Of a stretch of 64,000 nucleotides of DNA, positions 37,422 through 52,310 are shown piece after piece. Both the position numbers and the translations under genes were made by a program. Each line of letters opens with the position of its first letter. Positions within the stretch are counted from its first letter, which is position 1. The stretch lies in contig CAVXLC010000002.1 in the NCBI GenBank assembly GCA_963762545.1, positions 1,191,384 to 1,255,383 on the forward strand. Direction: 5' to 3'. The notes under the pieces were generated by a model. That model was given only the letters and a program-made list of their open reading frames with translations. It was not told the DNA's origin and did not search any database. The DNA comes from an uncultured Gemmatimonadales bacterium. Its GTDB lineage: Bacteria > Gemmatimonadota > Gemmatimonadetes > Gemmatimonadales > GWC2-71-9.

Positions 37422-39896
<2,475 letters not shown>

Positions 39897-39906
39897 GCTT
39901 GCCGTT

Positions 39907-41019
39907 TCACCTCTGGGTCGGAGGCGCCTGTGCGGAAGGCCCGCGACGCCCCACTTCCTCCTCCAGCACCTGGCGGACATATGCGGCTCGGCGCACCGGC
40001 ACCTCGTCTTCCGTGAGGGTGCGGCCGTGGGCGGCGGCGAGATGCGCGGGCTGGGTGAACACCAGCAGCTTGTTCAGCGCATACATACCGACGTTCGGAA
40101 TGAGCCCGAGCCCCACACCGAGCCGAACGCCGCTCAGGAGGTTCATCGTTTCCTCGAACGACAGGCTGCGCGCATACCGGAGGAGCCCGTACGCCCGCCA
40201 CACCTTGTCCTCGAGGATCGCCGTCGCGTCGCGCAGGAGAATCTGGCGCGCGCGCTCCTCGTGCTCCATCACCTGCCGAACCAGCTTGCCGAGGTGGTCC
40301 AGCAGCTCCAGCTCCGACTTGCCGAGGGTGGTCTGGTTCGACAGCTGGAACAGGTTGCCGACCACCTCGCTGCCCTCGCCGTACAGCCCCCGGAAGGTCA
40401 AGCCGACCTGGGTGAGGGCCTGGAGAATCTTGTTGATTTCCTTCGTCAAAACGAGGCCCGGGAGGTGCACCAAAACCGAGGCCCGGAGCCCGGTTCCGAC
40501 GTTGGTCGGGCAACTCGTAAGGTAACCGAACTCCGGGTGAAATGCGAAGGCAAGTCGTTGCCCCAGTTCGGCGTCCAGCGTTGCGACCAGGCTCCAGGCG
40601 GCCTCCAGAGCGAACCCGGAACGGAGCGCCTGGATCCGGAGGTGGTCCTCCTCGTTGACCATCACGCTGGCCTGGTCCTGGACCAGCAAACCGCCGGCCG
40701 GCCGGGGCCCGGGGCTTCCGTCCGGACCGGCCAATTCCCGGCTGACCAGGTGCCGCTCGTGCAGCAGCTGCCGATCGGGCAGATCCAGCCGATCCACCCT
40801 GAAATGGACGGCGTGCCCGAGGCCGGTGGTGCGCGCGGCGGCGGCCTCGACTTCGGCGAGGATGGCCTCCCGCTCGGCGGGGTCGCTCCGGGTCGCGAAC
40901 CGGTGGCCCGTGAGGTTCCGCGCCAGGCGAATCCGGGTCGACACCACCAGGTGGCTTCCCGGCCCGCTGGCTTCGAGCCAGGCCATGCCCCCGTCGGGGA
41001 GCAGACTGAGATCGATCAT
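39907..41019 (-). CDS. mcsB: Protein arginine kinase McsB
   Basis: STRIRLARN, VNEEDHLRIQ, GYLTSCPTNVGTGLRAS, RGLYGEGS, QLSNQTTLG. Confidence 0.95.
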   Translation of the reverse strand: MIDLSLLPDGGMAWLEASGPGSHLVVSTRIRLARNLTGHRFATRSDPAEREAILAEVEAAAARTTGLGHAVHFRVDRLDLPDRQLLHERHLVSRELAGPDGSPGPRPAGGLLVQDQASVMVNEEDHLRIQALRSGFALEAAWSLVATLDAELGQRLAFAFHPEFGYLTSCPTNVGTGLRASVLVHLPGLVLTKEINKILQALTQVGLTFRGLYGEGSEVVGNLFQLSNQTTLGKSELELLDHLGKLVRQVMEHEERARQILLRDATAILEDKVWRAYGLLRYARSLSFEETMNLLSGVRLGVGLGLIPNVGMYALNKLLVFTQPAHLAAAHGRTLTEDEVPVRRAAYVRQVLEEEVGRRGPSAQAPPTQR

Positions 41020-41519
41020 TCGCGCTCCCGCAGCCGATCGCGGAGCTCGGCGGCCAGCTCGAATTGCTCGCGCTCCACCGCGCGGCGGAGCTGTTCCCGG
41101 AGCTCGAGGTCGGTCTGGCCCGGCTCGGCCCGGGGCCCCGGCGCCTCGCCGCGATCGTACTGCATCCCGGTGTGATGCGTGGAACCATGGAGCCGTCGCA
41201 GCAGCTCGCGCAGGGTGGCATCGAAGGTCACGTAGCACTCGGCGCATCCCACGCGCCCGGTCTCCCGGAAATCGCGCAGCGTGGCGTTGCATCCCGGGCA
41301 GCGGGCCTCCAGCGCGGCCATCACGGGCGCGTCCGGATCGGCGCCCTCGCCCAGCTTGGCCAGGAATCCGCCCAGCGGGGTGTCCGCCATCGCGAACCCG
41401 GTCTCGATGCCCTTGTCCGCGGCGCACTGGGCGCAGAGACTCGAGGTATGCACCTCGCCCTCCTTCACCTGGGTGAGGCTCACGACCCCCTCGCGCTCCC
41501 CGCAGTTGCTGCATTTCAT
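41016..41519 (-). CDS. mcsA: McsB activator McsA
   Basis: Four CxxC motifs, GCAECY..F, HGSTHHTG, C-terminal UVR domain. Confidence 0.93.
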   Translation of the reverse strand: MKCSNCGEREGVVSLTQVKEGEVHTSSLCAQCAADKGIETGFAMADTPLGGFLAKLGEGADPDAPVMAALEARCPGCNATLRDFRETGRVGCAECYVTFDATLRELLRRLHGSTHHTGMQYDRGEAPGPRAEPGQTDLELREQLRRAVEREQFELAAELRDRLRERE

Positions 41520-43485: not shown

Positions 43486-45005
43486 CCGGACTCCCCCTCT
43501 TCGGGGCGCAGGGCGGGAAACAGAATCACATCCCGGATCGAGGCCTGCCCGGTGATCAGCATGATCAGACGATCGAGCCCCAGCCCCATGCCGCCGGTGG
43601 GGGGCATGCCGTACTCGAGGGCCCGGATGTAGTCGGCGTCGAGGGGTTGGGCCTCTTCGTCGCCGGCGGCGCGCTGCCGGGCCTGGTCGGCAAAGCGGGC
43701 CCGCTGCTCGTCGGGGTCGTTGAGCTCGCTGAAGGCGTTGGCGATCTCCTTGCCGGCCACGAAGAGCTCGAACCGTTCGGTCAGGGCCGGGTCCTCCCGG
43801 TGCTCCCGCGCGAGCGGGGACAGGGCCTTGGGATAGTCCACCACGAACGTCGGCTGGGTGAGCCGCGGCTCGACGAACACCTTGAACACCTCGTCCATCA
43901 GGCGGCCGCCGGCGAGCGGCTCGGCGTCCTCGCGGGAGACGCCCGACCCGGTGAGTTTGGCCCGCAGCTCGGGCTCGGCCGCCGTCCGGATGTCCAGGCC
44001 GGTCTGCTCCCGGATCGCGGCGACGAACTCGAGCCGGCGGAACGGGGGCGTGAAGTCGAGGGCCGCGCCCTGATAGGTCACGCCGGGACCGCCGGTGGCA
44101 TGCTGCACCACGCCCGACACCATCGCCTCGGTCAGCGCCATGATGTCGTGATAGTCGGCGTAGGCCTGGTAGCATTCCAGCATGGTGAATTCCGGATTGT
44201 GGGTGCGGTCCATCCCCTCGTTCCGGAAATCGTGCCCGATCTCGTACACCTTCTCGAACCCGCCCACGATCAGCCGCTTGAGGTAGAGCTCATCGGCGAT
44301 CCGGAGGTAGAGCGGCATGTCGAGGGCGTTGTGGTGGGTGACGAACGGCCGGGCCATCGCGCCCCCGTACAGCGGCTGGAGCACCGGCGTCTCCACCTCG
44401 AGAAACCCCCGCTCGTCCAGGAAGCGGCGCAGATAGCGGATCGCCTCGGCGCGGGTCTCGAACACCCGGCGGACCTCGGGGTGCACCGCCAGATCGGCGT
44501 AGCGCTGCCGGTAGCGCACCTCCGGGTCGAGCAGGCCGCCGAAGGTCACCGCGCCCGATGCGGTCTGCTGGGTCTTGCCCCGGGGGAGCGGGCGGACGCT
44601 CTTGGCCAGCAGCTCGATGACGAGCGCGCGCACCGTCACCTCGCCGGTACGGGTGCGAAACAGCGTCCCGGTGATCCCGACATGATCGTCGAGATCGAGC
44701 AGCCGGGCGGTGTCCCAGCCCGCGCCGAGGGCATCCTGGCGCAGGTAGACCTGGATGCGGCCGGACGCGTCTTCCAGGTGCCCGAACATCGTCTTGCCCT
44801 GGAGCCGGAGCGCCGCGAGGCGCCCGGCCACCGCCACCATGGGGCCCTGGTCTCCCATGGCATCGGTGTACAGCGCCAGCGCCTCCGCGGCGGTGTGGGT
44901 GCGCTCGTACCGGTAGGCGTAGGGCCGCACCCCCAGCGACGCCAGCGCGGCGCGGCTGGTCCGCCGCGCCTCCTCTACGTAGCTCCGTTCCCCGTCACCG
45001 CTCAC
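43482..45005 (-). CDS. lysS: Lysyl-tRNA synthetase (class II)
   Basis: RYRQRY.DL, GGAMARPF.THHN, LRIADELYLKRL, FRNEG, YGMPPTGG.G.GLDR. Confidence 0.97.
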   Translation of the reverse strand: MSGDGERSYVEEARRTSRAALASLGVRPYAYRYERTHTAAEALALYTDAMGDQGPMVAVAGRLAALRLQGKTMFGHLEDASGRIQVYLRQDALGAGWDTARLLDLDDHVGITGTLFRTRTGEVTVRALVIELLAKSVRPLPRGKTQQTASGAVTFGGLLDPEVRYRQRYADLAVHPEVRRVFETRAEAIRYLRRFLDERGFLEVETPVLQPLYGGAMARPFVTHHNALDMPLYLRIADELYLKRLIVGGFEKVYEIGHDFRNEGMDRTHNPEFTMLECYQAYADYHDIMALTEAMVSGVVQHATGGPGVTYQGAALDFTPPFRRLEFVAAIREQTGLDIRTAAEPELRAKLTGSGVSREDAEPLAGGRLMDEVFKVFVEPRLTQPTFVVDYPKALSPLAREHREDPALTERFELFVAGKEIANAFSELNDPDEQRARFADQARQRAAGDEEAQPLDADYIRALEYGMPPTGGMGLGLDRLIMLITGQASIRDVILFPALRPEEGESG

Positions 45006-46106
45006 GTGGCGCTCCCCGCGAACCGCTTGAGATAGGCCTGGATGAACTCGTCGATGTCGCCGTCCATCACCCGCTGGACGTCGGTGACCTTGAGCTCGGT
45101 GCGGTGGTCGTTGACCATCGTGTAGGGCTGGAAGACGTAGCTGCGGATCTGGTTGCCCCACGAGTTGTCGGTCTTGGTGGCCTCGACCAGGGCCCGGGCC
45201 GCCTCCTGCTCCTCCAGCTTCTTCTGGTAGAGCGCCGCGCGCAGCATCTTGTAGGCGGTCGCCTTGTTCTTGCCCTGACTGCGCTCCTGCTGGCAGGCCA
45301 CCACGATCCCGGTCGGAAGGTGGGTCAGGCGCACCGCCGAGGACGTCTTGTTGACGTGCTGTCCGCCGGCGCCGGAGGCCCGGTACACGTCCATCTTGAT
45401 GTCCTCCTCGCGGAGATCCACCTCGATGGTGTCGTCGATGTCGGGATAGACGAAGACCGAGGCGAACGAGGTGTGGCGCCGCGACTGGGAATCGTAGGGT
45501 GAGATGCGCACCAGCCGGTGCACGCCCTTCTCGGCCTTGAGGAACCCGTAGGCGTACTCGCCCTTGATCTCCATCGAGATCGACTTGATGCCGGCCTCCT
45601 CGCCGGGAATCAGATCCAGCACGCCGATCTGGTACCCCTTCCGCTCGGCCCAGCGGCGGTACATCCGGGAGAGCATCTCGGCCCAGTCCTGCGACTCGGT
45701 CCCCCCGGCGCCGGGGTGGATGGTCAGGATCGCGTCTCCGGGGTCGTCGGGGCCGCGCAGCAGCATCTTGAGCTCGAACGATTCGAGCACGTTCGCCACG
45801 CTCTCCACCTCCGCCGCGAGCTCGGTGGCCAGCCCCTCGTCCGGCTCGGCCTCCAGCAACTCGCTCATGCCGCGGGCATCGGCCAGCCGGGCGCGAATAC
45901 CGGCCGCGGGCACTATCCAGCTCTTGAGCGCCTTGACCTCCTGCACCAGGGCGCGGGCGCGATCCGGGTTCGACCAGAACCCGGGGTCCGCCTGGTCGCC
46001 CTCGAGCGCCTTGAGCCGGGCTTCCTTGGCGGGGAGGTCAAAGAAACTCCGAGAGCTCGAGGATCCGCCGTTCCAGCTCATCCAACCGCTCATCCAGACT
46101 GGCCAT
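45002..46106 (-). CDS. prfB: Peptide chain release factor 2 (programmed +1 frameshift at 46043-46037)
   Basis: 22-codon first ORF MASLDERL...SEFL ending CTT TGA C with GGAG just upstream; GGQ motif, SPY recognition loop. Confidence 0.96.
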
Positions 46107-46203
46107 CGCCGGAATCTCTCAGGTTGAGGGTCCGTTTGTGATGCGAGCCGCCCCCCGCCAGCGGCGAAGAGACGGCTCGCTTCTACCACCGGGAAATATA
46201 ATC

Positions 46204-46989
46204 CTACGGGAAGACGGGCTGGCCGTCCGCCAGGATCTCGTTGAGGGCATCGGTGAAGAAGGTGGTGGCTTCGGCGAGCTGCTTGCCGACCTGCTCGACA
46301 TACTCCTCCCAGCTCTTCCGGATCTCCTCCTCGAACAGGAGCTTGAGCGACCCGTCGCGGAGGCCGTCGCGCCGCTTGGCGGGATGGTAGACCACGATGT
46401 CGCTGACCAGGGCCCGGGCCAGGCGACGGGCCCGCGCCTCAGGATCCTGGGACAGGAAGGGGTTGGTGGGCCGCTTGGGACGCGCCGCGGGGGGCGCCGC
46501 GGGCGTCGCCGACGCGGCGGCGGGGACAGCCACGGGTGCGGCCACCGGAGGCGGAACCGGGACCGCAGCCGGGAGAGGCGCGGGCGGCGGCACCGGGGCC
46601 GGAGGTGCGGCCGGTCGAGCGATCGGAGCCGTGAAGGCCGGGGCCGGGGGACTGGCGGGCCGGTACGACGGCGGCGGCCCCCCGGGCGCCGCGGGAGGCA
46701 CCACGGCGGGCCGCGCGATGGCCGGGCCGCGGGGTACCGCCGGCGGCGGCGCTACCGGCAGGGGCTGCGGCGCCGGCTCGGCCCTCGGGGGGGGACGCAC
46801 CGGAGGCGGCGCGGCGGGCGGAGCCGCCGCCTGGACCGGAGCCGCCACTGGAGGCGCCCCGGCCTCGGGAACCCGGCGGACCCAGAAGACCCCGGAACAC
46901 ACCGAGCAGCGGGCCCGGACCCCGTCCGCCGGAACCTTGGCGGGATCGACCCGGAAGACGGTCTGGCACTGGGTGCAGGTGGCATTCAT
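46204..46989 (-). CDS. MJ0042-type zinc-ribbon protein with Pro/Ala linker and helical C-terminal domain
   Basis: CTQC...VRARCSVC; about 145-aa Pro/Ala linker; ARRLARALVSDIVVY...IRKSWEEY domain. Confidence 0.8.
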   Translation of the reverse strand: MNATCTQCQTVFRVDPAKVPADGVRARCSVCSGVFWVRRVPEAGAPPVAAPVQAAAPPAAPPPVRPPPRAEPAPQPLPVAPPPAVPRGPAIARPAVVPPAAPGGPPPSYRPASPPAPAFTAPIARPAAPPAPVPPPAPLPAAVPVPPPVAAPVAVPAAASATPAAPPAARPKRPTNPFLSQDPEARARRLARALVSDIVVYHPAKRRDGLRDGSLKLLFEEEIRKSWEEYVEQVGKQLAEATTFFTDALNEILADGQPVFP

Positions 46990-47987
46990 GGCTTTTCACC
47001 GGCCGCTTCCCGCTGCGACGGCGACCCGGTGGGCCGCTCTTCGTCGGTGCGGCCCTGGCGGCGGTCCACGACATACACCGATCCCGGCAGCGTCTTGGCG
47101 TAGCTCTTCATCTCGGTGGCCAGCTCGCTCACTTCGGCCGGATGCGCGAAGGTGCGGTGACGGTTGGTCACGATGCCCACCGAAAGCGTCATCAGGGGAA
47201 CTCGATGCAATTGCCCTCGCCGATCCTTGCCGAAGAAGTATCCAGCCCGCCGGTCCTGCTCGTTGTACTGGAACGGTACCAGGGAATCGAACACCGCGAG
47301 TATCTCGCCGCAGACCGGGCTGATGTCGGCCGCGGGGATGATGAAAATAAAGTCATCGCCCCCGATATGCCCCACGAAGCCGCGGTTCCCCAGCAGCCCC
47401 TTGACGACGTCGTGGAGGATGCGCGACAGGATGTAGATCACCCGGTCCCCGTCGTAGTAGCTGTAGCGGTCGTTGTATTCCTTGAAGTGATCGAGATCGG
47501 CGTAGCAGACCGCAAATTCCTGGGCGCCTTCCAACCGGCGGCGAATTTCCCGCTCGATTTCCGTGGTGCCCGGCATCCGGGTGCTCGGGTGCACCGACAC
47601 GTCCCGCTGGGTGCGGACCAGCAGGGCATCGAGACGGGCCCGCTGCTCCTCGAGCGGGAACAGGCCGGTCAGGATTTCGTCGGCCCCCGCGGCAAACCAG
47701 CCCTGAATCTCGTCGGCGTCGTGGGACCCGGCCAGAATGAGCGAGGGAATGATGGCGGTAAAGGGGTCGCTCTTGAGCCGGCGAACCAGCTGAAGGCCCG
47801 ACTGCCCCATGCGATCTGCGTCGATGAACAGGAGGCAGGGATGCCCGCGGAGGACGATGGACTCGACCTGGGCAGCGTCCGCGTGAACCTCCAGGGGGAA
47901 GCTGCGCCCGAGAGCCCACTCGCGAACCAGGTCCGGGACAGGCTCCCCGACCGGTCCGAAGAACAGAATGGTCGGACGAGTCCGCAC
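46986..47987 (-). CDS. Pseudo-receiver + GGDEF diguanylate cyclase
   Basis: DLDHFKEYND, HIGGDDF, TLSVG; degenerate REC domain (ILFFGP, LLFID, GADEILTG). Confidence 0.88.
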   Translation of the reverse strand: MRTRPTILFFGPVGEPVPDLVREWALGRSFPLEVHADAAQVESIVLRGHPCLLFIDADRMGQSGLQLVRRLKSDPFTAIIPSLILAGSHDADEIQGWFAAGADEILTGLFPLEEQRARLDALLVRTQRDVSVHPSTRMPGTTEIEREIRRRLEGAQEFAVCYADLDHFKEYNDRYSYYDGDRVIYILSRILHDVVKGLLGNRGFVGHIGGDDFIFIIPAADISPVCGEILAVFDSLVPFQYNEQDRRAGYFFGKDRRGQLHRVPLMTLSVGIVTNRHRTFAHPAEVSELATEMKSYAKTLPGSVYVVDRRQGRTDEERPTGSPSQREAAGEKP

Positions 47988-48049: not shown

Positions 48050-49702
48050 TCAGAGGAAGAACGCCGCCGCCCCCACCATCCCGTAGAGCGCCAGCAGCTG
48101 AGCGCCCTCAAACCAGTGGGATTCCCCGTCCAGGGTGATGATGGCCACCACGATGGTCGAGACCGCCAGGGCCACCACTTCCAGCGGCGTGAACACCAGA
48201 TTGACCGGCACGTGCAACACCAGGCCCGCCAGCACCAGCAACGGCGCGACCAGCAGCGCCACCTGGGTACTCGACCCGAGTGCAATCTGCAGCGCGAGGT
48301 CGGTCTTCCCCGCCCTGGCCATGACGACGGCGGTGGCGTGCTCGGCCGCATTCCCGATGATGGGAATGACGATCAGGCCGAGGAAGGTCTGAGACACTCC
48401 CAGCGTCGTGGTTACCCCCTGGATCGCATGAACCAGCAATTCCGATTCCACCACCACGCCCGCGGTCGCCAGCGCAAGCACCAGCACGGCCTGACCCACG
48501 CTCCAGGTGGCGCCGTGGGGCGTCGCGTTGGGATCCACCCCGAAGACCGTCTTGTGGGTGTAGAGCGAGAACAGGAGCGAGAGGCCGTAGGTCACCGCCA
48601 GGATGATCGCGACCGCTTCGGACAGCTGCAGCTCGGTGAACGCCAGCCGGCTGGTTTCGGTCCCGGGGTGAATGCTGTGGAACAGCGCCGGAAAGATCAG
48701 CCCGACCACCGCCAGCGCCAGCATGGCGGAGCTCATGCCGGCGGCGGTGCGGTTGAAGCGCAGGATCGGGGCCTTGACGCCTCCCACCACGAGCGACAAT
48801 CCGAGGATCAGGAGCAGGTTTCCCAGGATGCTGCCGGTGATCGAGGCCTTGACCAGATCCACCAGCCCGGCACGGAGCGCCACGATCGCGATGATCAGCT
48901 CGGCGGCATTGCCGAACGTCGCGTTGAGGAGGCCGCCGATCGTCGGTCCGGTTTGCTCGGCGATCTGCTCGGTGGCTTCGCCCATCAGCCCGGCCAGCGG
49001 CAGCACCGCGAGGCATGCGGTGACAAAGAGCAGCAGCGGGGAGGCGTGCTGCCAGTTCAGGACCACGCTGGCGGGAACGGCCAGGAGCAGGAGCAGCACG
49101 GGAGAGAATCTCCGGCTGCCTCCGCGCCGCTTCGGGCGGGAGCGGTCCAGGTGGGGTGGCAACCGCCGCTCGCTCCGCGGCGGCTCCTCGTCGGAGGGTG
49201 CGCTCTCCAGCGGAGCCGGACGGCGGTCCCGCTTGCCCCGGGTCGGATCGGGGACAGGTGCGGGCCGGTCCGGGCGGGCCTGCTTCGGCTGGTGAGGCTT
49301 CGGGGCCCTGGGGGGACGCCCGGGCTCGGCGGCCTTCCGGAGTTCCTGGAGGTTTACGCCCCGGCGGCTCAGGACGCTGGCCACCCGGCCCTTCGGCGCG
49401 CGCAGCAGCACGGCGAGCAGGTTCCCGTCGGCGCGCTCGGCGTCGGCCACGGCGCGCTCGGCAAACCGGCTCATGGGTGGCGGCGCCGAACCTCCCGCCT
49501 CCGCGACGGGAAGCCCGCTCAACAGCTCCTCGGCCAGGCCGTCCAGCGACACACCGGCGGTTGCCAGCGCCCGAGCGGCGACGCCCTCGGGCTCGGTGAG
49601 CGCGGCGGCCAGCAGATGCTCGGTGCCGACGAACGCATGGTTGGCCGCGGTGGCGGCCCGCCGTGCCGTCTCGACGACTCGCGAGATGTCCGGTGCGCTC
49701 AC
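48050..49702 (-). CDS. Ca2+/H+ exchanger (CAX/ChaA type) fused to an N-terminal Clp-N domain
   Basis: [27 protein letters not shown] (Clp-N); [40 protein letters not shown] (CaCA alpha repeats); GTG 49702 overlaps the Trm112 stop. Confidence 0.88.
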
Positions 49703-49866
49703 ACCGGCTTCGCCTCGTCGATCAGCATGATCGGGATGTCGTCTTCGATGGGATAGGCCAGGCGGCAGGCGGGGCAGACCAGCACCCCTTCGGCGGGCCG
49801 ATAGTCGAGATCGCCCTTGCACTTGGGACAGACCAGGATTTCGAGCAGCTCGGGGGCCAGCGTCAT
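49699..49866 (-). CDS. Trm112/YcaR-family small protein
   Basis: [14 protein letters not shown]...[22 protein letters not shown]. Confidence 0.92.
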
Positions 49867-50735
49867 GGGCGCTCCGCGGGAAGGTCGGGGAATCCGAATC
49901 GGGCGAGCTGGGCCGGGTCGCGGCGCCATTTCGGAAGCACGCTCACCCAGGTATCGAGATACACGCGCCGGCCCAGCAGCTGTTCGAGCCGGCGGCGCGC
50001 GTGGGTGCCGATCGCCTTCAGCGTGCGGCCACCTTCGCCAATCAGAATGCGTTTCTGGGTCTCGCGCTCGACGAAGAGCGACGCACGAATGTACACCGGA
50101 TCGGTCGCCTCGCGGAACTCCTCGATCTCGGCGGCGAAGGCGTACGGCAGCTCGTCGTCGAGATGGAGGAACGCGGCTTCCCGCAGGAATTCCGTGGCGA
50201 AGAATCGGGTCGGCTGGGTGCCGAGGTCGTCCGCGGCGTAGGCGAATTCCCGCTCCGGCAGGTGGGCCACGATGGCGGTGAGGAGCTGGTCGATGCCCAT
50301 CCCGGTCCCGGCGGAGACGACGATGGCTTCGCTCGCCAGCTGGGCGAGCCGGGGCGGGGCGAGCAGATCGCCCTTGGTGTACACCACGATGACCGGTGCC
50401 CGGGGCGGCGCGTCGAGTCCCGCCATGCGGGTGAAGTCGGGCGCGGGCGCGTCCGGCGCGGGGTGGAGATAGAGGATCACGTCGGCCTGGCGCACGCCTT
50501 CCAGCGCGAGGGCCCGCATCCGGGCCTGGAGAGCGTACTCGGGATCGAGGAGGCCGGGCAGGTCGTGAAAGACGAACTGGACCTCGCCCTCGGTGCGGAG
50601 TCCGGTGACCGGCAGCCGGGTGGCCTGGGCCTTGGCGCTGACCAGGGCCAGGTGCTCGCCGACCAAGGTATTGAGGAGCGAGGATTTGCCGACGTTGGGT
50701 TTGCCGGCGAGGGCGATGTGGCCGGACTTGGTCAT
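49863..50735 (-). CDS. era: GTPase Era
   Basis: [24 protein letters not shown] domain [19 protein letters not shown]. Confidence 0.93.
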
Positions 50736-50870: not shown

Positions 50871-52310
50871 TTGCCTCTCAAGCTGGGCGCGTTGTTGTCG
50901 TGGAGGCTTCTCGGCGTCGCTGCACTGGCGGCGGCGTGCGGGACCACTTCGACGTCCGGCCCGCAGCCAGCGGTTCGTCTCGTATTCGTGGATCAACCGG
51001 ACTCGGTCCCCGCGGGTAACCCGATCCGACCCCTGCGCGTCTCGGTCCAGGATGCCCACGGCAACCCGGTCGCCGAGCCGGCGCGGGTGGTTACGGTGAG
51101 TCTCGTTCCGGGCACCGGACCGGGAGTACTGGGAGGCTCTCCCACCGCCACGGCCATTGCCGGGACGGCCACCTTTACGGCACTCACCGTCAGTGTGCCT
51201 GGCTCGCACTATCGGCTTACGGCGACGTCCCCGGGGCTAACCGCCAGCGAAACCAATCCGTTCGTAGCGGCGCTTCATTTCACCTCGCTGCGTTCGGGCG
51301 GAAACGACAGTTGTGGAATCGCGTCGGGCGCGCTGTACTGCTGGGGCGAGCACGGCGCACTCCTCTCCGGCACTGGGACCGGGTCGACCACTCTACCCAC
51401 CCGGCGCGAGAGTCCGCCCTCGTTCGCGGACGGGTTCCTCGCGATGGGCAAGGGAAATATTTGTGTACAGACCGGCATCGACATGTATTGCTGGGGCGCC
51501 GGTTTCGGCAATTCGTCGCCGGCTCTCCTGCCCGGCGGACATCTATTCGCCCGCTTCCAGGTGTCTGCGCACGCATGCGGATACGAGGGGGGAGGCCTGG
51601 TATGGTGCTGGGGGGCCAACCAGGACGGGCAACTCGGTCACGGAACCGTGGGAGGGCCGGAACCCATTCCTGCGCTGGTCGCCGGCAACATCAATGGTTT
51701 CAACGTCACCGTCGGCGCGGCGCATGGCTGTGCGCAGGGCGACCCAAACGGCACAGCTTACTGCTGGGGCGGCAATGCGGAGGGCCAGCTCGGCAACGGC
51801 AGCCTGGTCTCGTCGTCGGTTCCCGTGGCGGTTCAGACTTCGCTCCGGTTCCTCGCTATCGACGCGGGGGGTGAGTTCACCTGCGGGTGGACCGCGGCGC
51901 GGGCCACCTACTGTTGGGGGCGGAACGACGAGCTCCAATTGGGAAACCCCCAGGCCGGGCTTCGCAGCACCACGCCGGTGTTGGTGGGAGGCGATCTGGC
52001 GGTCACCGCACTCTATCTGGGCGTGGCGCACGCCTGTATGACCCTGGGATCCGGTGAAGCGTATTGCTGGGGCAGGAATGCACACGGCGAGCTGGGCGCG
52101 GGCGCGAGCGGGCCGGCGAGCGGCATCCCGGTCAAGGTGAAGGCCATCGGGCACGAGGTATTCGAGGCGCTGGCGCCGGGCGACAGCCACACCTGTGCGC
52201 TGACCACAAGTGGTTTGGTCTACTGCTGGGGCGCCAATGCGCAGGGCCAGCTCGGGAATGGGACGACGACTCCGAGCGTTGGTCCGGTGATGGTGCTGCC
52301 GCCACCCTGA
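50871..52310 (+). CDS. RCC1/BLIP-II-repeat lipoprotein with N-terminal Ig-like domain
   Basis: Lipobox ALAAA-C; repeated H.C....G..YCWG.N..GQLG.G units. Confidence 0.85.
   Translation: MPLKLGALLSWRLLGVAALAAACGTTSTSGPQPAVRLVFVDQPDSVPAGNPIRPLRVSVQDAHGNPVAEPARVVTVSLVPGTGPGVLGGSPTATAIAGTATFTALTVSVPGSHYRLTATSPGLTASETNPFVAALHFTSLRSGGNDSCGIASGALYCWGEHGALLSGTGTGSTTLPTRRESPPSFADGFLAMGKGNICVQTGIDMYCWGAGFGNSSPALLPGGHLFARFQVSAHACGYEGGGLVWCWGANQDGQLGHGTVGGPEPIPALVAGNINGFNVTVGAAHGCAQGDPNGTAYCWGGNAEGQLGNGSLVSSSVPVAVQTSLRFLAIDAGGEFTCGWTAARATYCWGRNDELQLGNPQAGLRSTTPVLVGGDLAVTALYLGVAHACMTLGSGEAYCWGRNAHGELGAGASGPASGIPVKVKAIGHEVFEALAPGDSHTCALTTSGLVYCWGANAQGQLGNGTTTPSVGPVMVLPPP

Follow-up and report, generated by a model that had tools for sequence, protein, structure and literature searches.

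The gene analysed here fuses a ClpC-type N-terminal domain (N-domain) to a Ca2+/H+ exchanger of the CAX family, and it lies in a 64,000-nucleotide stretch of DNA (the window) from an uncultured Gemmatimonadales soil bacterium (contig CAVXLC010000002.1). Its closest described counterparts are ClpC itself, the ClpC2 protein of the Actinomycetota, and exchangers of solved structure such as plant CAX1. In ClpC, according to the accessible part of a 2025 EMBO J paper (PMC12583610), the N-domain holds two pockets for phospho-arginine (pArg): pArg1, marked by E106 with T7 and the nearby R9, and pArg2, marked by E32 with the nearby R122. For the activation of ClpC, pArg1 is the more important of the two. 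This source also has the pockets contacting MecA and the M-domain in ClpC, and the hydrophobic groove of Clp N-domains binding unfolded chains. ClpC2, as far as the accessible part of PMC13345244 describes it, binds pArg at ∼5 µM and loses this binding upon Thr-to-Ala substitution, and pArg makes it release a repressor. Within these partly accessible sources, ClpC2 is the only worked example of a Clp N-domain sensor outside unfoldases that we met, and it is a real precedent for such a domain acting as a sensor outside AAA+ machines. On the exchanger side, the first 36 residues of plant CAX1 are described as an autoinhibitory regulatory region (PMC13591097, accessible part). Literature searches found no published description of a Clp_N/ClpC–CAX fusion, as an earlier reading of the window from its letters (the sequence-only reading) had supposed, and no bacterial CAX to which a folded regulatory domain is joined.

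The gene spans 48050–49702 on the minus strand, as do all of its parts given below (stop codon 48050–48052; coordinates checked by translation), and encodes 550 aa in the order Clp_N, linker, CAX. Residue numbers are those of the 550-aa protein unless the 590-aa frame is stated, the latter being the single unbroken open reading frame (ORF) at 48050–49822 on the minus strand, read from an upstream GTG. We place the start, as the sequence-only reading did, at the GTG at 49702, because this codon overlaps the stop of the preceding Trm112p-like gene as GTGA, the database gene call is likewise 550 aa (P0002), and the extra 40 codons of the longer reading contain a stop in relatives. The 590-aa reading (GTG 49822) was rejected on the grounds of this overlap and of the stop in relatives, to which the 550-aa query aligned without any stop. 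In the database the protein is named only 'calcium/proton exchanger'.

The exchanger core occupies residues 198–550 (48053–49111), with 11 predicted membrane helices. Its two GNAAE motifs, at 48899–48913 (residues 264–268) and 48341–48355 (residues 450–454), are in register with those of yeast VCX1 and invariant in 85 sequences. Pfam finds Na_Ca_ex (PF01699) in two stretches (E 8.8e-39, 133.3 bits), and TIGR00378 'cax', the NCBIfam equivalog for these exchangers of the CaCA superfamily, is matched over model positions 1–349 of 349 with 338.8 bits (cut-off 211.15). The core aligns end to end with VCX1 (PDB 4k1c, E 6.1e-72), and also with B. subtilis YfkE (4kjr, E 1.8e-68) and plant CAX1 (9vsa, E 1e-57). 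A full-length AlphaFold2 model built with 85 relatives (mean predicted local distance difference test score, pLDDT, 71.6) shows eleven membrane helices between residues 201 and 549, one leading helix plus ten. These comparisons identify the core as a complete CAX of the working type, and Ca2+/H+ antiport is predicted. Its likeness to YfkE and VCX1 covers the whole core, both GNAAE motifs and the first helix ahead of the ten-helix core. The difference lies upstream. The YfkE chain begins at the first membrane helix (residue 3 of the core query aligns to chain residue 7), and none of the solved exchangers matched the N-domain: all 36 PDB sequence matches to it at E ≤ 0.001 are Clp proteins, although plant CAX1 chains were included.

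The N-domain comprises residues 1–128 (49319–49702), arranged in eight helices. Pfam recognizes Clp_N (PF02861) in two stretches (E 4.6e-17, 62.4 bits against a cut-off of 20.7). Modelled alone with AlphaFold2 from 27 family sequences, the domain reaches a pLDDT of 91.9 and a predicted template modelling score (pTM) of 0.87, again with eight helices; within the full-length model its blocks have pLDDT values of 81–94. A Foldseek search of the PDB with this model gave 46 matches at E ≤ 0.001, and every listed one is a Clp N-domain. They include those of ClpC1 (3wdc, 1.2e-5; 6ucr, TM 0.78), pArg-bound ClpC (5hbn), ClpC2 (8ad9, 8b9o), ClpA and ClpB, with TM scores of 0.70–0.78 to the ClpC1/ClpC N-domains. 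On the strength of these models, the domain is predicted to fold as a double-repeat, eight-helix Clp N-domain. By sequence it is nearest to the ClpC type: a phmmer search of the PDB gave E 3.4e-18 for ClpC1 versus 3.6e-5 for ClpB, and identity to the N-domain of the same genome's ClpC is 37%. Pfam finds no AAA family in the 550-aa protein, in which a CAX follows the N-domain instead, so it is not an Hsp100/Clp unfoldase; nor does Pfam find a DNA-binding family in it. The sequence-only reading had proposed an uninterrupted frame of about 550 aa that begins with a Clp-N domain and ends in a complete CAX with both GNAAE motifs. All of this stands, and every sequence string that it quoted is present, the ClpC string being repeat 1 of the ClpC encoded at 37422–39896.

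A search of the whole library with the N-domain returned 11398 matches at E ≤ 0.001, the top ones other than fusions being proteins with 4–12 Clp_N stretches. This search is little informative on the domain's donor, because the scores of multi-stretch proteins add up. Clp_N is widespread outside unfoldases, as database proteins P0102, P0104, P0109, P0095 and P0091 illustrate: the settings include proteins of 4–9 Clp_N stretches, arrays with a GerE/LuxR DNA-binding domain, Clp_N ahead of T2SSF+T2SSE, and proteins of ∼410 aa.

The likeness to ClpC N-domains (B. subtilis 5hbn; M. tuberculosis ClpC1 3wdc, 6ucr) extends from the fold to the GTEH of repeat 1 (49616–49627), which includes the Glu of pocket pArg2. 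The fusion's domain differs in having no AAA+ ATPase, and its degenerate repeat 2 (49319–49483) is without GTEH owing to a deletion of ∼10 residues. By alignment to the pocket residues as given in the accessible source, A3 and D5 replace T7 and R9, and the E106 region, i.e. the second GTEH, is deleted. Pocket pArg1 thus appears destroyed. The sequence-only reading had cautioned that the second repeat might not form a canonical pocket; this was right and, if anything, understated, as all of T7, R9 and E106 are gone by alignment.

Pocket pArg2 fares better. E28 of the fusion aligns ungapped, in the ClpC1 alignment, to E32 of B. subtilis and S. aureus ClpC, the pArg2 Glu of the accessible source, and the genus of the source organism also retains T27 and S78. 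S78 aligns to T81, a residue that, from the two-fold symmetry of the domain, would belong to pArg2. Judging from these three residues (E28, T27 and S78), pArg2 seems to be partly kept. F80 and S109 stand at the positions of ClpC R83 and R122. In other genera, the pocket Thr is T or S at 13 of 17 loci. Set against the two pockets by which a pArg-reading ClpC N-domain (5hbn) is recognized, only E28 (equivalent to E32) is present in the fusion, and the same genome's own ClpC has both canonical pockets. With ClpC2 the fusion shares a Clp N-domain outside an unfoldase. ClpC2 keeps only one of the two pArg sites and uses it as a regulatory input (PMC13345244), whereas the one pocket of the fusion seems partly kept, with a Thr that varies at four of the 17 other-genus loci. 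In ClpC2 the domain is fused to a DNA-binding part and the output is a repressor, whereas here it stands at the N-terminus of a membrane transporter, on a long disordered tether and in another phylum.

This tether, residues 129–197 (49112–49318), is rich in Arg (22%) and Pro (26%) and net positive, with pLDDT values below 50 for residues 129–182 and 184–197 of the full-length model. Its length varies from ∼43 to 216 aa across genera. In 29 of the 30 linkers from fused rows, Arg makes up 13–24% and Pro 12–33% of residues, with a net positive charge. About 20 residues ahead of the first membrane helix lies a conserved motif, ERRLPPHL (residues 178–185; 49148–49171): in 85 sequences, R179, R180, L181, H184 and L185 are at least 90% conserved and P182 and P183 are invariant, and within the genus the motif as a whole hardly varies. 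Using the genus sequences, we defined the pattern [RKP]R[ILVA]xP and searched the final 45 residues of the linker for it at fused loci of other genera. It occurs in 8 of 19 such loci, compared to a shuffling expectation of 2.65 (a count of 8 was reached in 9 of 2000 shuffles), and together with an acidic-Pro piece in 6 of 19, compared to 1.3 expected (0 of 2000 shuffles reach 6). As related rows are not independent, the motif beyond the genus is a lead and not proof. One fused locus of the same family (L049, G060:C7) has a linker of only ∼43 residues that is not Arg/Pro-rich and is without the juxtamembrane motif.

The leading helix of CAX proteins begins in the cytosol, as in the VCX1 and YfkE structures. 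The 550-aa protein has no signal peptide and carries a run of basic residues ahead of its first membrane helix. Taken with the known topology, these features suggest that the N-terminus, and with it the N-domain, should be cytoplasmic.

To what extent is the fusion shared? A search with the N-terminal part (residues 41–245 of the 590-aa frame; 8000 candidates scored) bears out the domain pairing that the sequence-only reading had put forward: 86 of 100 matches carry both PF02861 and PF01699, in proteins of 365–582 aa from several sources, and the four fusion matches with organism names are all Gemmatimonadales. The other matches are one protein with Clp_N only, one with Na_Ca_ex only, eight ClpC-type ATPases, three Clp_N proteins of ∼410 aa and one Clp_N–T2SS ATPase. 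Clp_N proteins of ∼410 aa are labelled 'prophage maintenance system killer protein' by one source.

Within the genus (25 genomes, G000 included), 16 genomes have one match running from residue ≤13 to residue 590 (590-aa numbering), G005 has two match pieces inside one 577-aa frame, and five have partial matches, four of which end within ∼50 bases of the contig's first base. No match was found in three of the 25 (G008, G018 and G023; 72, 84 and 59% complete). G018 retains only a 33-residue remnant of the exchanger's C-terminus (G018:C6:38823–38921, 73% identity) beside a Trm112-like region, which looks like a recent whole-gene deletion. For the family we used an even draw of 151 genomes from 78 genera, 81 of which have a CAX match at E ≤ 1e-20. 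In 26 of the 81 the match aligns from residue ≤43, and seven more loci proved fused on reading (L024–L029, L049). The fusion is thus present in at least 33 of the 151 genomes and 19 of the 78 genera, and since the first look was stricter, the count is a floor. In a draw of 251 genomes from the phylum, matches including the N-domain are confined to this same Gemmatimonadales family. CAX matches in four other families begin at about residue 100–209, and the four loci read from other families are all plain (L033–L036, L034 being from G281). The tallies for the genus, for McsB in the family and for the phylum include the unpublished genomes G010, G053, G107, G172 and G281.

Sixteen DNA sequencing runs share words with the window sequence, up to a fraction of 0.29 in the best of them, and the sharers listed include no RNA sequencing run. 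Among the contigs of runs X1–X4, which are short pieces, two X1 contigs span 49469–49822 without differences. The sequence-only reading had looked to read support across the linker, and there it gains nothing, as no contig of X1–X4 bridges 49036–49248. Given this, the fusion rests on the many independent assemblies in which it recurs. It is not an assembly artefact.

A plain CAX of ∼350 aa is found at 16 loci of the family (L030–L032, L039–L048, L050–L052), several of them directly after a Trm112-like gene, the same placement as the fused gene. No G-x-E-H/Clp-like frame was seen within ∼2.4 kb upstream at 13 plain loci, and five plain genomes contain no small Clp_N gene, their Clp_N being confined to frames of ∼830–980 aa of the ClpC and ClpB types. 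For the loci read, these results led us to reject a split-gene reading, that is, the two separate genes that the sequence-only reading had named as the case against itself. The long frames upstream of some plain exchangers (L033, L043, L052) were likewise rejected, being chance high-G+C frames and not N-domains.

A maximum-likelihood tree of exchanger cores (IQ-TREE quick; 47 rows, 28 fused and 19 plain) shows fused and plain proteins intermingled, with eight changes on the best tree and at least two forced by well-supported branches. For example, the fused L049 is sister to the plain L045–L047 plus L050 with a support of 97. Left off the tree were L007, at a contig end; L022, L023 and L034, in which the pattern found no complete core; and L037, in which no CAX motif was found. 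Because the N-domains are mutually alignable and the core tree is intermingled, one early gain followed by repeated loss is the simplest reading, proof of which needs a rooted species tree. Purifying selection acts on the N-domain within the genus: its ratio of nonsynonymous to synonymous substitution rates (dN/dS; Nei-Gojobori, 55 pairs from 11 genomes) comes to 0.19, next to 0.16 in the core and 0.46 in the linker. We take the fusion to be real and old, maintained by selection and lost several times over; among the sampled genomes it belongs to one Gemmatimonadales family.

What might the N-domain do? We think it probable that it is an accessory tethered module, for binding or regulation, which tunes the activity or lifetime of the exchanger. 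The protein would then be a CAX exchanger bearing a cytoplasmic ClpC-type domain on a disordered, positively charged Arg/Pro-rich tether. The domain would stand outside the transport machine: an accessory role is suggested because the N-domain is dispensable, as seen from the 16 plain loci, the five plain genomes and the intermingled tree. It was probably added once, early in the family and at a fixed place (era, trm112-like, cax); many genera have retained it under purifying selection, and others have since lost it. Through its partly kept ClpC-like pocket (T27, E28, S78), the tethered domain may bind a protein or peptide. What it binds could be a separate protein or, alternatively, the acidic-Pro/Arg-Arg motif conserved within the linker of the same molecule. 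Binding to its own linker would give an N-terminal on/off switch with a logic comparable to that of the plant CAX1 autoinhibitor. This likeness is by analogy only and concerns a cytosolic N-terminal extension ahead of the first helix. The plant element, as far as the accessible source describes it, is a short peptide, compared to a folded domain of 128 residues and a 69-residue tether here, and no sequence likeness between the two was found in the PDB at E ≤ 0.001. Predicted docking of the N-domain (residues 1–128) on the motif plus core (170–550) gave an interaction prediction score from aligned errors (ipSAE) of 0.00 in both runs, which were made without controls and so count neither for nor against such a contact.

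In favour of such a module stand the single gene with its coupled starts, domain scores above the curated cut-offs, the confident ClpC-type fold, the recurrence of the fusion across 19 genera, purifying selection within the genus, the invariance of G26, E28 and H29 in 27 N-domains from 18 genera-level lineages, the recurrent Arg/Pro-rich tether with its motif ahead of the first helix, and the precedent of ClpC2. Several observations weigh against it. The residues found at the R83 and R122 positions are F80 and S109, and the pocket Thr is V, A, A and L at four of the 17 other-genus loci (L015, L025, L026 and L029). Between genera, the N-domain is just 23–31% identical, compared to 63–72% for the core. 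The N-domain residues invariant across the family are A13, A17, G26, E28, H29 and A81. These we take to be the general Clp_N signature with no extra patch, and family-level conservation does not exceed that signature. A linker made of R, P, A and E would also be expected of disordered stretches in a genome of 70% G+C. Finally, repeated loss indicates that cells do well without the domain.

The family offers a natural experiment: at one and the same locus, sister lineages carry this exchanger in either a fused or a plain form, and nearly all of the genomes have McsA, McsB and ClpC. The protein is also a purifiable test case for asking whether Clp N-domains are portable readers of pArg or other signals, and one for the control of bacterial calcium export.

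A rival explanation, which takes up the McsB-dependent gating of ion export proposed by the sequence-only reading, is that McsB phosphorylates Arg under protein-damage stress, either in the protein's own Arg-rich linker or in damaged proteins, and that the N-domain reads the pArg and opens or closes the exchanger. The machinery is at hand. As the sequence-only reading had it, the McsB/ClpC system lies in the window, which encodes clpC (37422–39896), mcsB (∼39907–40990, start not fixed) and mcsA (41016–41519, with zinc fingers and a UVR motif), all on the minus strand. Of the 151 family genomes, 143 carry the McsB kinase domain, versus 1 of 14 control genomes (B. subtilis). Also in favour are E28, invariant and aligned to the pArg2 Glu as far as that pocket is described, T27 and S78, kept in the genus, and a linker with 13–24% Arg; ClpC2, with its one kept site, acts as a pArg-sensitive regulator in the accessible part of PMC13345244. 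Against it, the pocket most relevant to ClpC activation in the partly accessible PMC12583610, pArg1, is gone by alignment, and the Thr is hydrophobic or Ala at four of 17 other-genus loci, whereas in ClpC2, as far as reported, Thr-to-Ala abolished binding. McsB is equally common in genomes without the fusion. The G-x-E-H motif, moreover, is general to Clp N-domains, including those not known to bind pArg.

The sequence-only reading had also drawn on the nearness of the exchanger to the McsB/ClpC system and proposed co-occurrence with mcsB as a check. Neither carries weight. The CAX gene lies ∼8–10 kb from mcsB/clpC, with seven genes between, lysS and prfB among them; the distance is ∼8–10 kb in plain-CAX genomes too (G090, G066), and co-occurrence, when checked, does not separate fused from plain genomes. 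Because fused and plain genomes are alike in both respects, co-occurrence and proximity argue nothing. On balance, we regard a switch worked by McsB as doubtful. The fuller version, in which McsB marks either the linker or damaged proteins and the exchanger is switched by a one-pocket reader of pArg, or of an acidic stretch of the tether that mimics it, strikes us as unlikely. If true, it would amount to an SH2-like intramolecular switch built on arginine phosphorylation, would couple the signalling of protein damage directly with ion homeostasis in a phylum of the Gram-negative type, and would give pArg a signalling role outside proteolysis and transcription. A full mcsA–mcsB–clpC operon (37422–41519, minus strand) in such a phylum is an observation in its own right.

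Alternatively, the domain or its tether could bring in ClpC/ClpP or an adaptor, allowing the exchanger to be cleared from the membrane when required. In ClpC itself these surfaces make contact with MecA and the M-domain (PMC12583610), and an unfoldase would find a good entry point in a long, disordered N-terminal tether. We know of no Clp N-domain that docks to ClpC in trans, however, and at the loci read the fusion is not accompanied by an adaptor gene. A handle for turnover seems quite improbable. The exchanger might instead be a mere membrane anchor, with the N-domain acting on other proteins, for example by holding unfolded or marked ones as the N-domains of ClpB, ClpC and ClpC2 do. The many non-AAA+ settings of Clp_N (arrays of 4–9 repeats, GerE, T2SSF+T2SSE) and the groove that binds unfolded chains (PMC12583610, accessible part) fit this idea. 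Among the matches to the N-domain query, however, it is always the same exchanger at the same locus, which points to a link with the exchanger's own job and leaves the anchor a poor prospect. Least credible of all is a functionless remnant drifting to loss, which would suit the repeated losses and fast divergence between genera and conflicts with the dN/dS of 0.19 over 55 pairs, intact frames and fold signature in at least 19 genera, and a confident fold (pLDDT 91.9).

The exchanger gene is the last of a string of three on the minus strand coupled by overlapping stops and starts (49699–50735 plus the exchanger). The string begins with the GTPase gene era (49863–50735), whose stop overlaps the ATG of a Trm112p-like zinc-ribbon ORF as ATGA (49699–49866, 55 aa; Pfam E 2.2e-17). 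A Trm112-like gene precedes plain CAX in relatives too, and hence is not tied to the N-domain. Downstream of the exchanger by 62 bases, a minus-strand gene (46986–47987) encodes a product with a receiver-like N-terminus that matches GGDEF weakly and over only part of the profile (E 2.9e-11, positions 17–92 of 161). Beyond it lies a gene resembling that for release factor 2 (45002–46189, minus strand). The first ∼45 residues of its listed frame are not protein-like, and this odd start may reflect the programmed +1 frameshift site that prfB genes usually have.

On the other side, between era and the rRNA operon, the plus strand encodes a 479-aa protein (50871–52310) with RCC1-like repeats behind an Ig-like N-terminal part (Pfam WD40_RLD, 191.6 bits; RCC1 in five stretches). 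A dip in G+C at 52374–57257 (0.58–0.62, compared to ∼0.70) corresponds to a full rRNA operon on the minus strand, with 16S rRNA at 55746–57257, 23S rRNA at 52617–55567 and 5S rRNA at 52374–52490.

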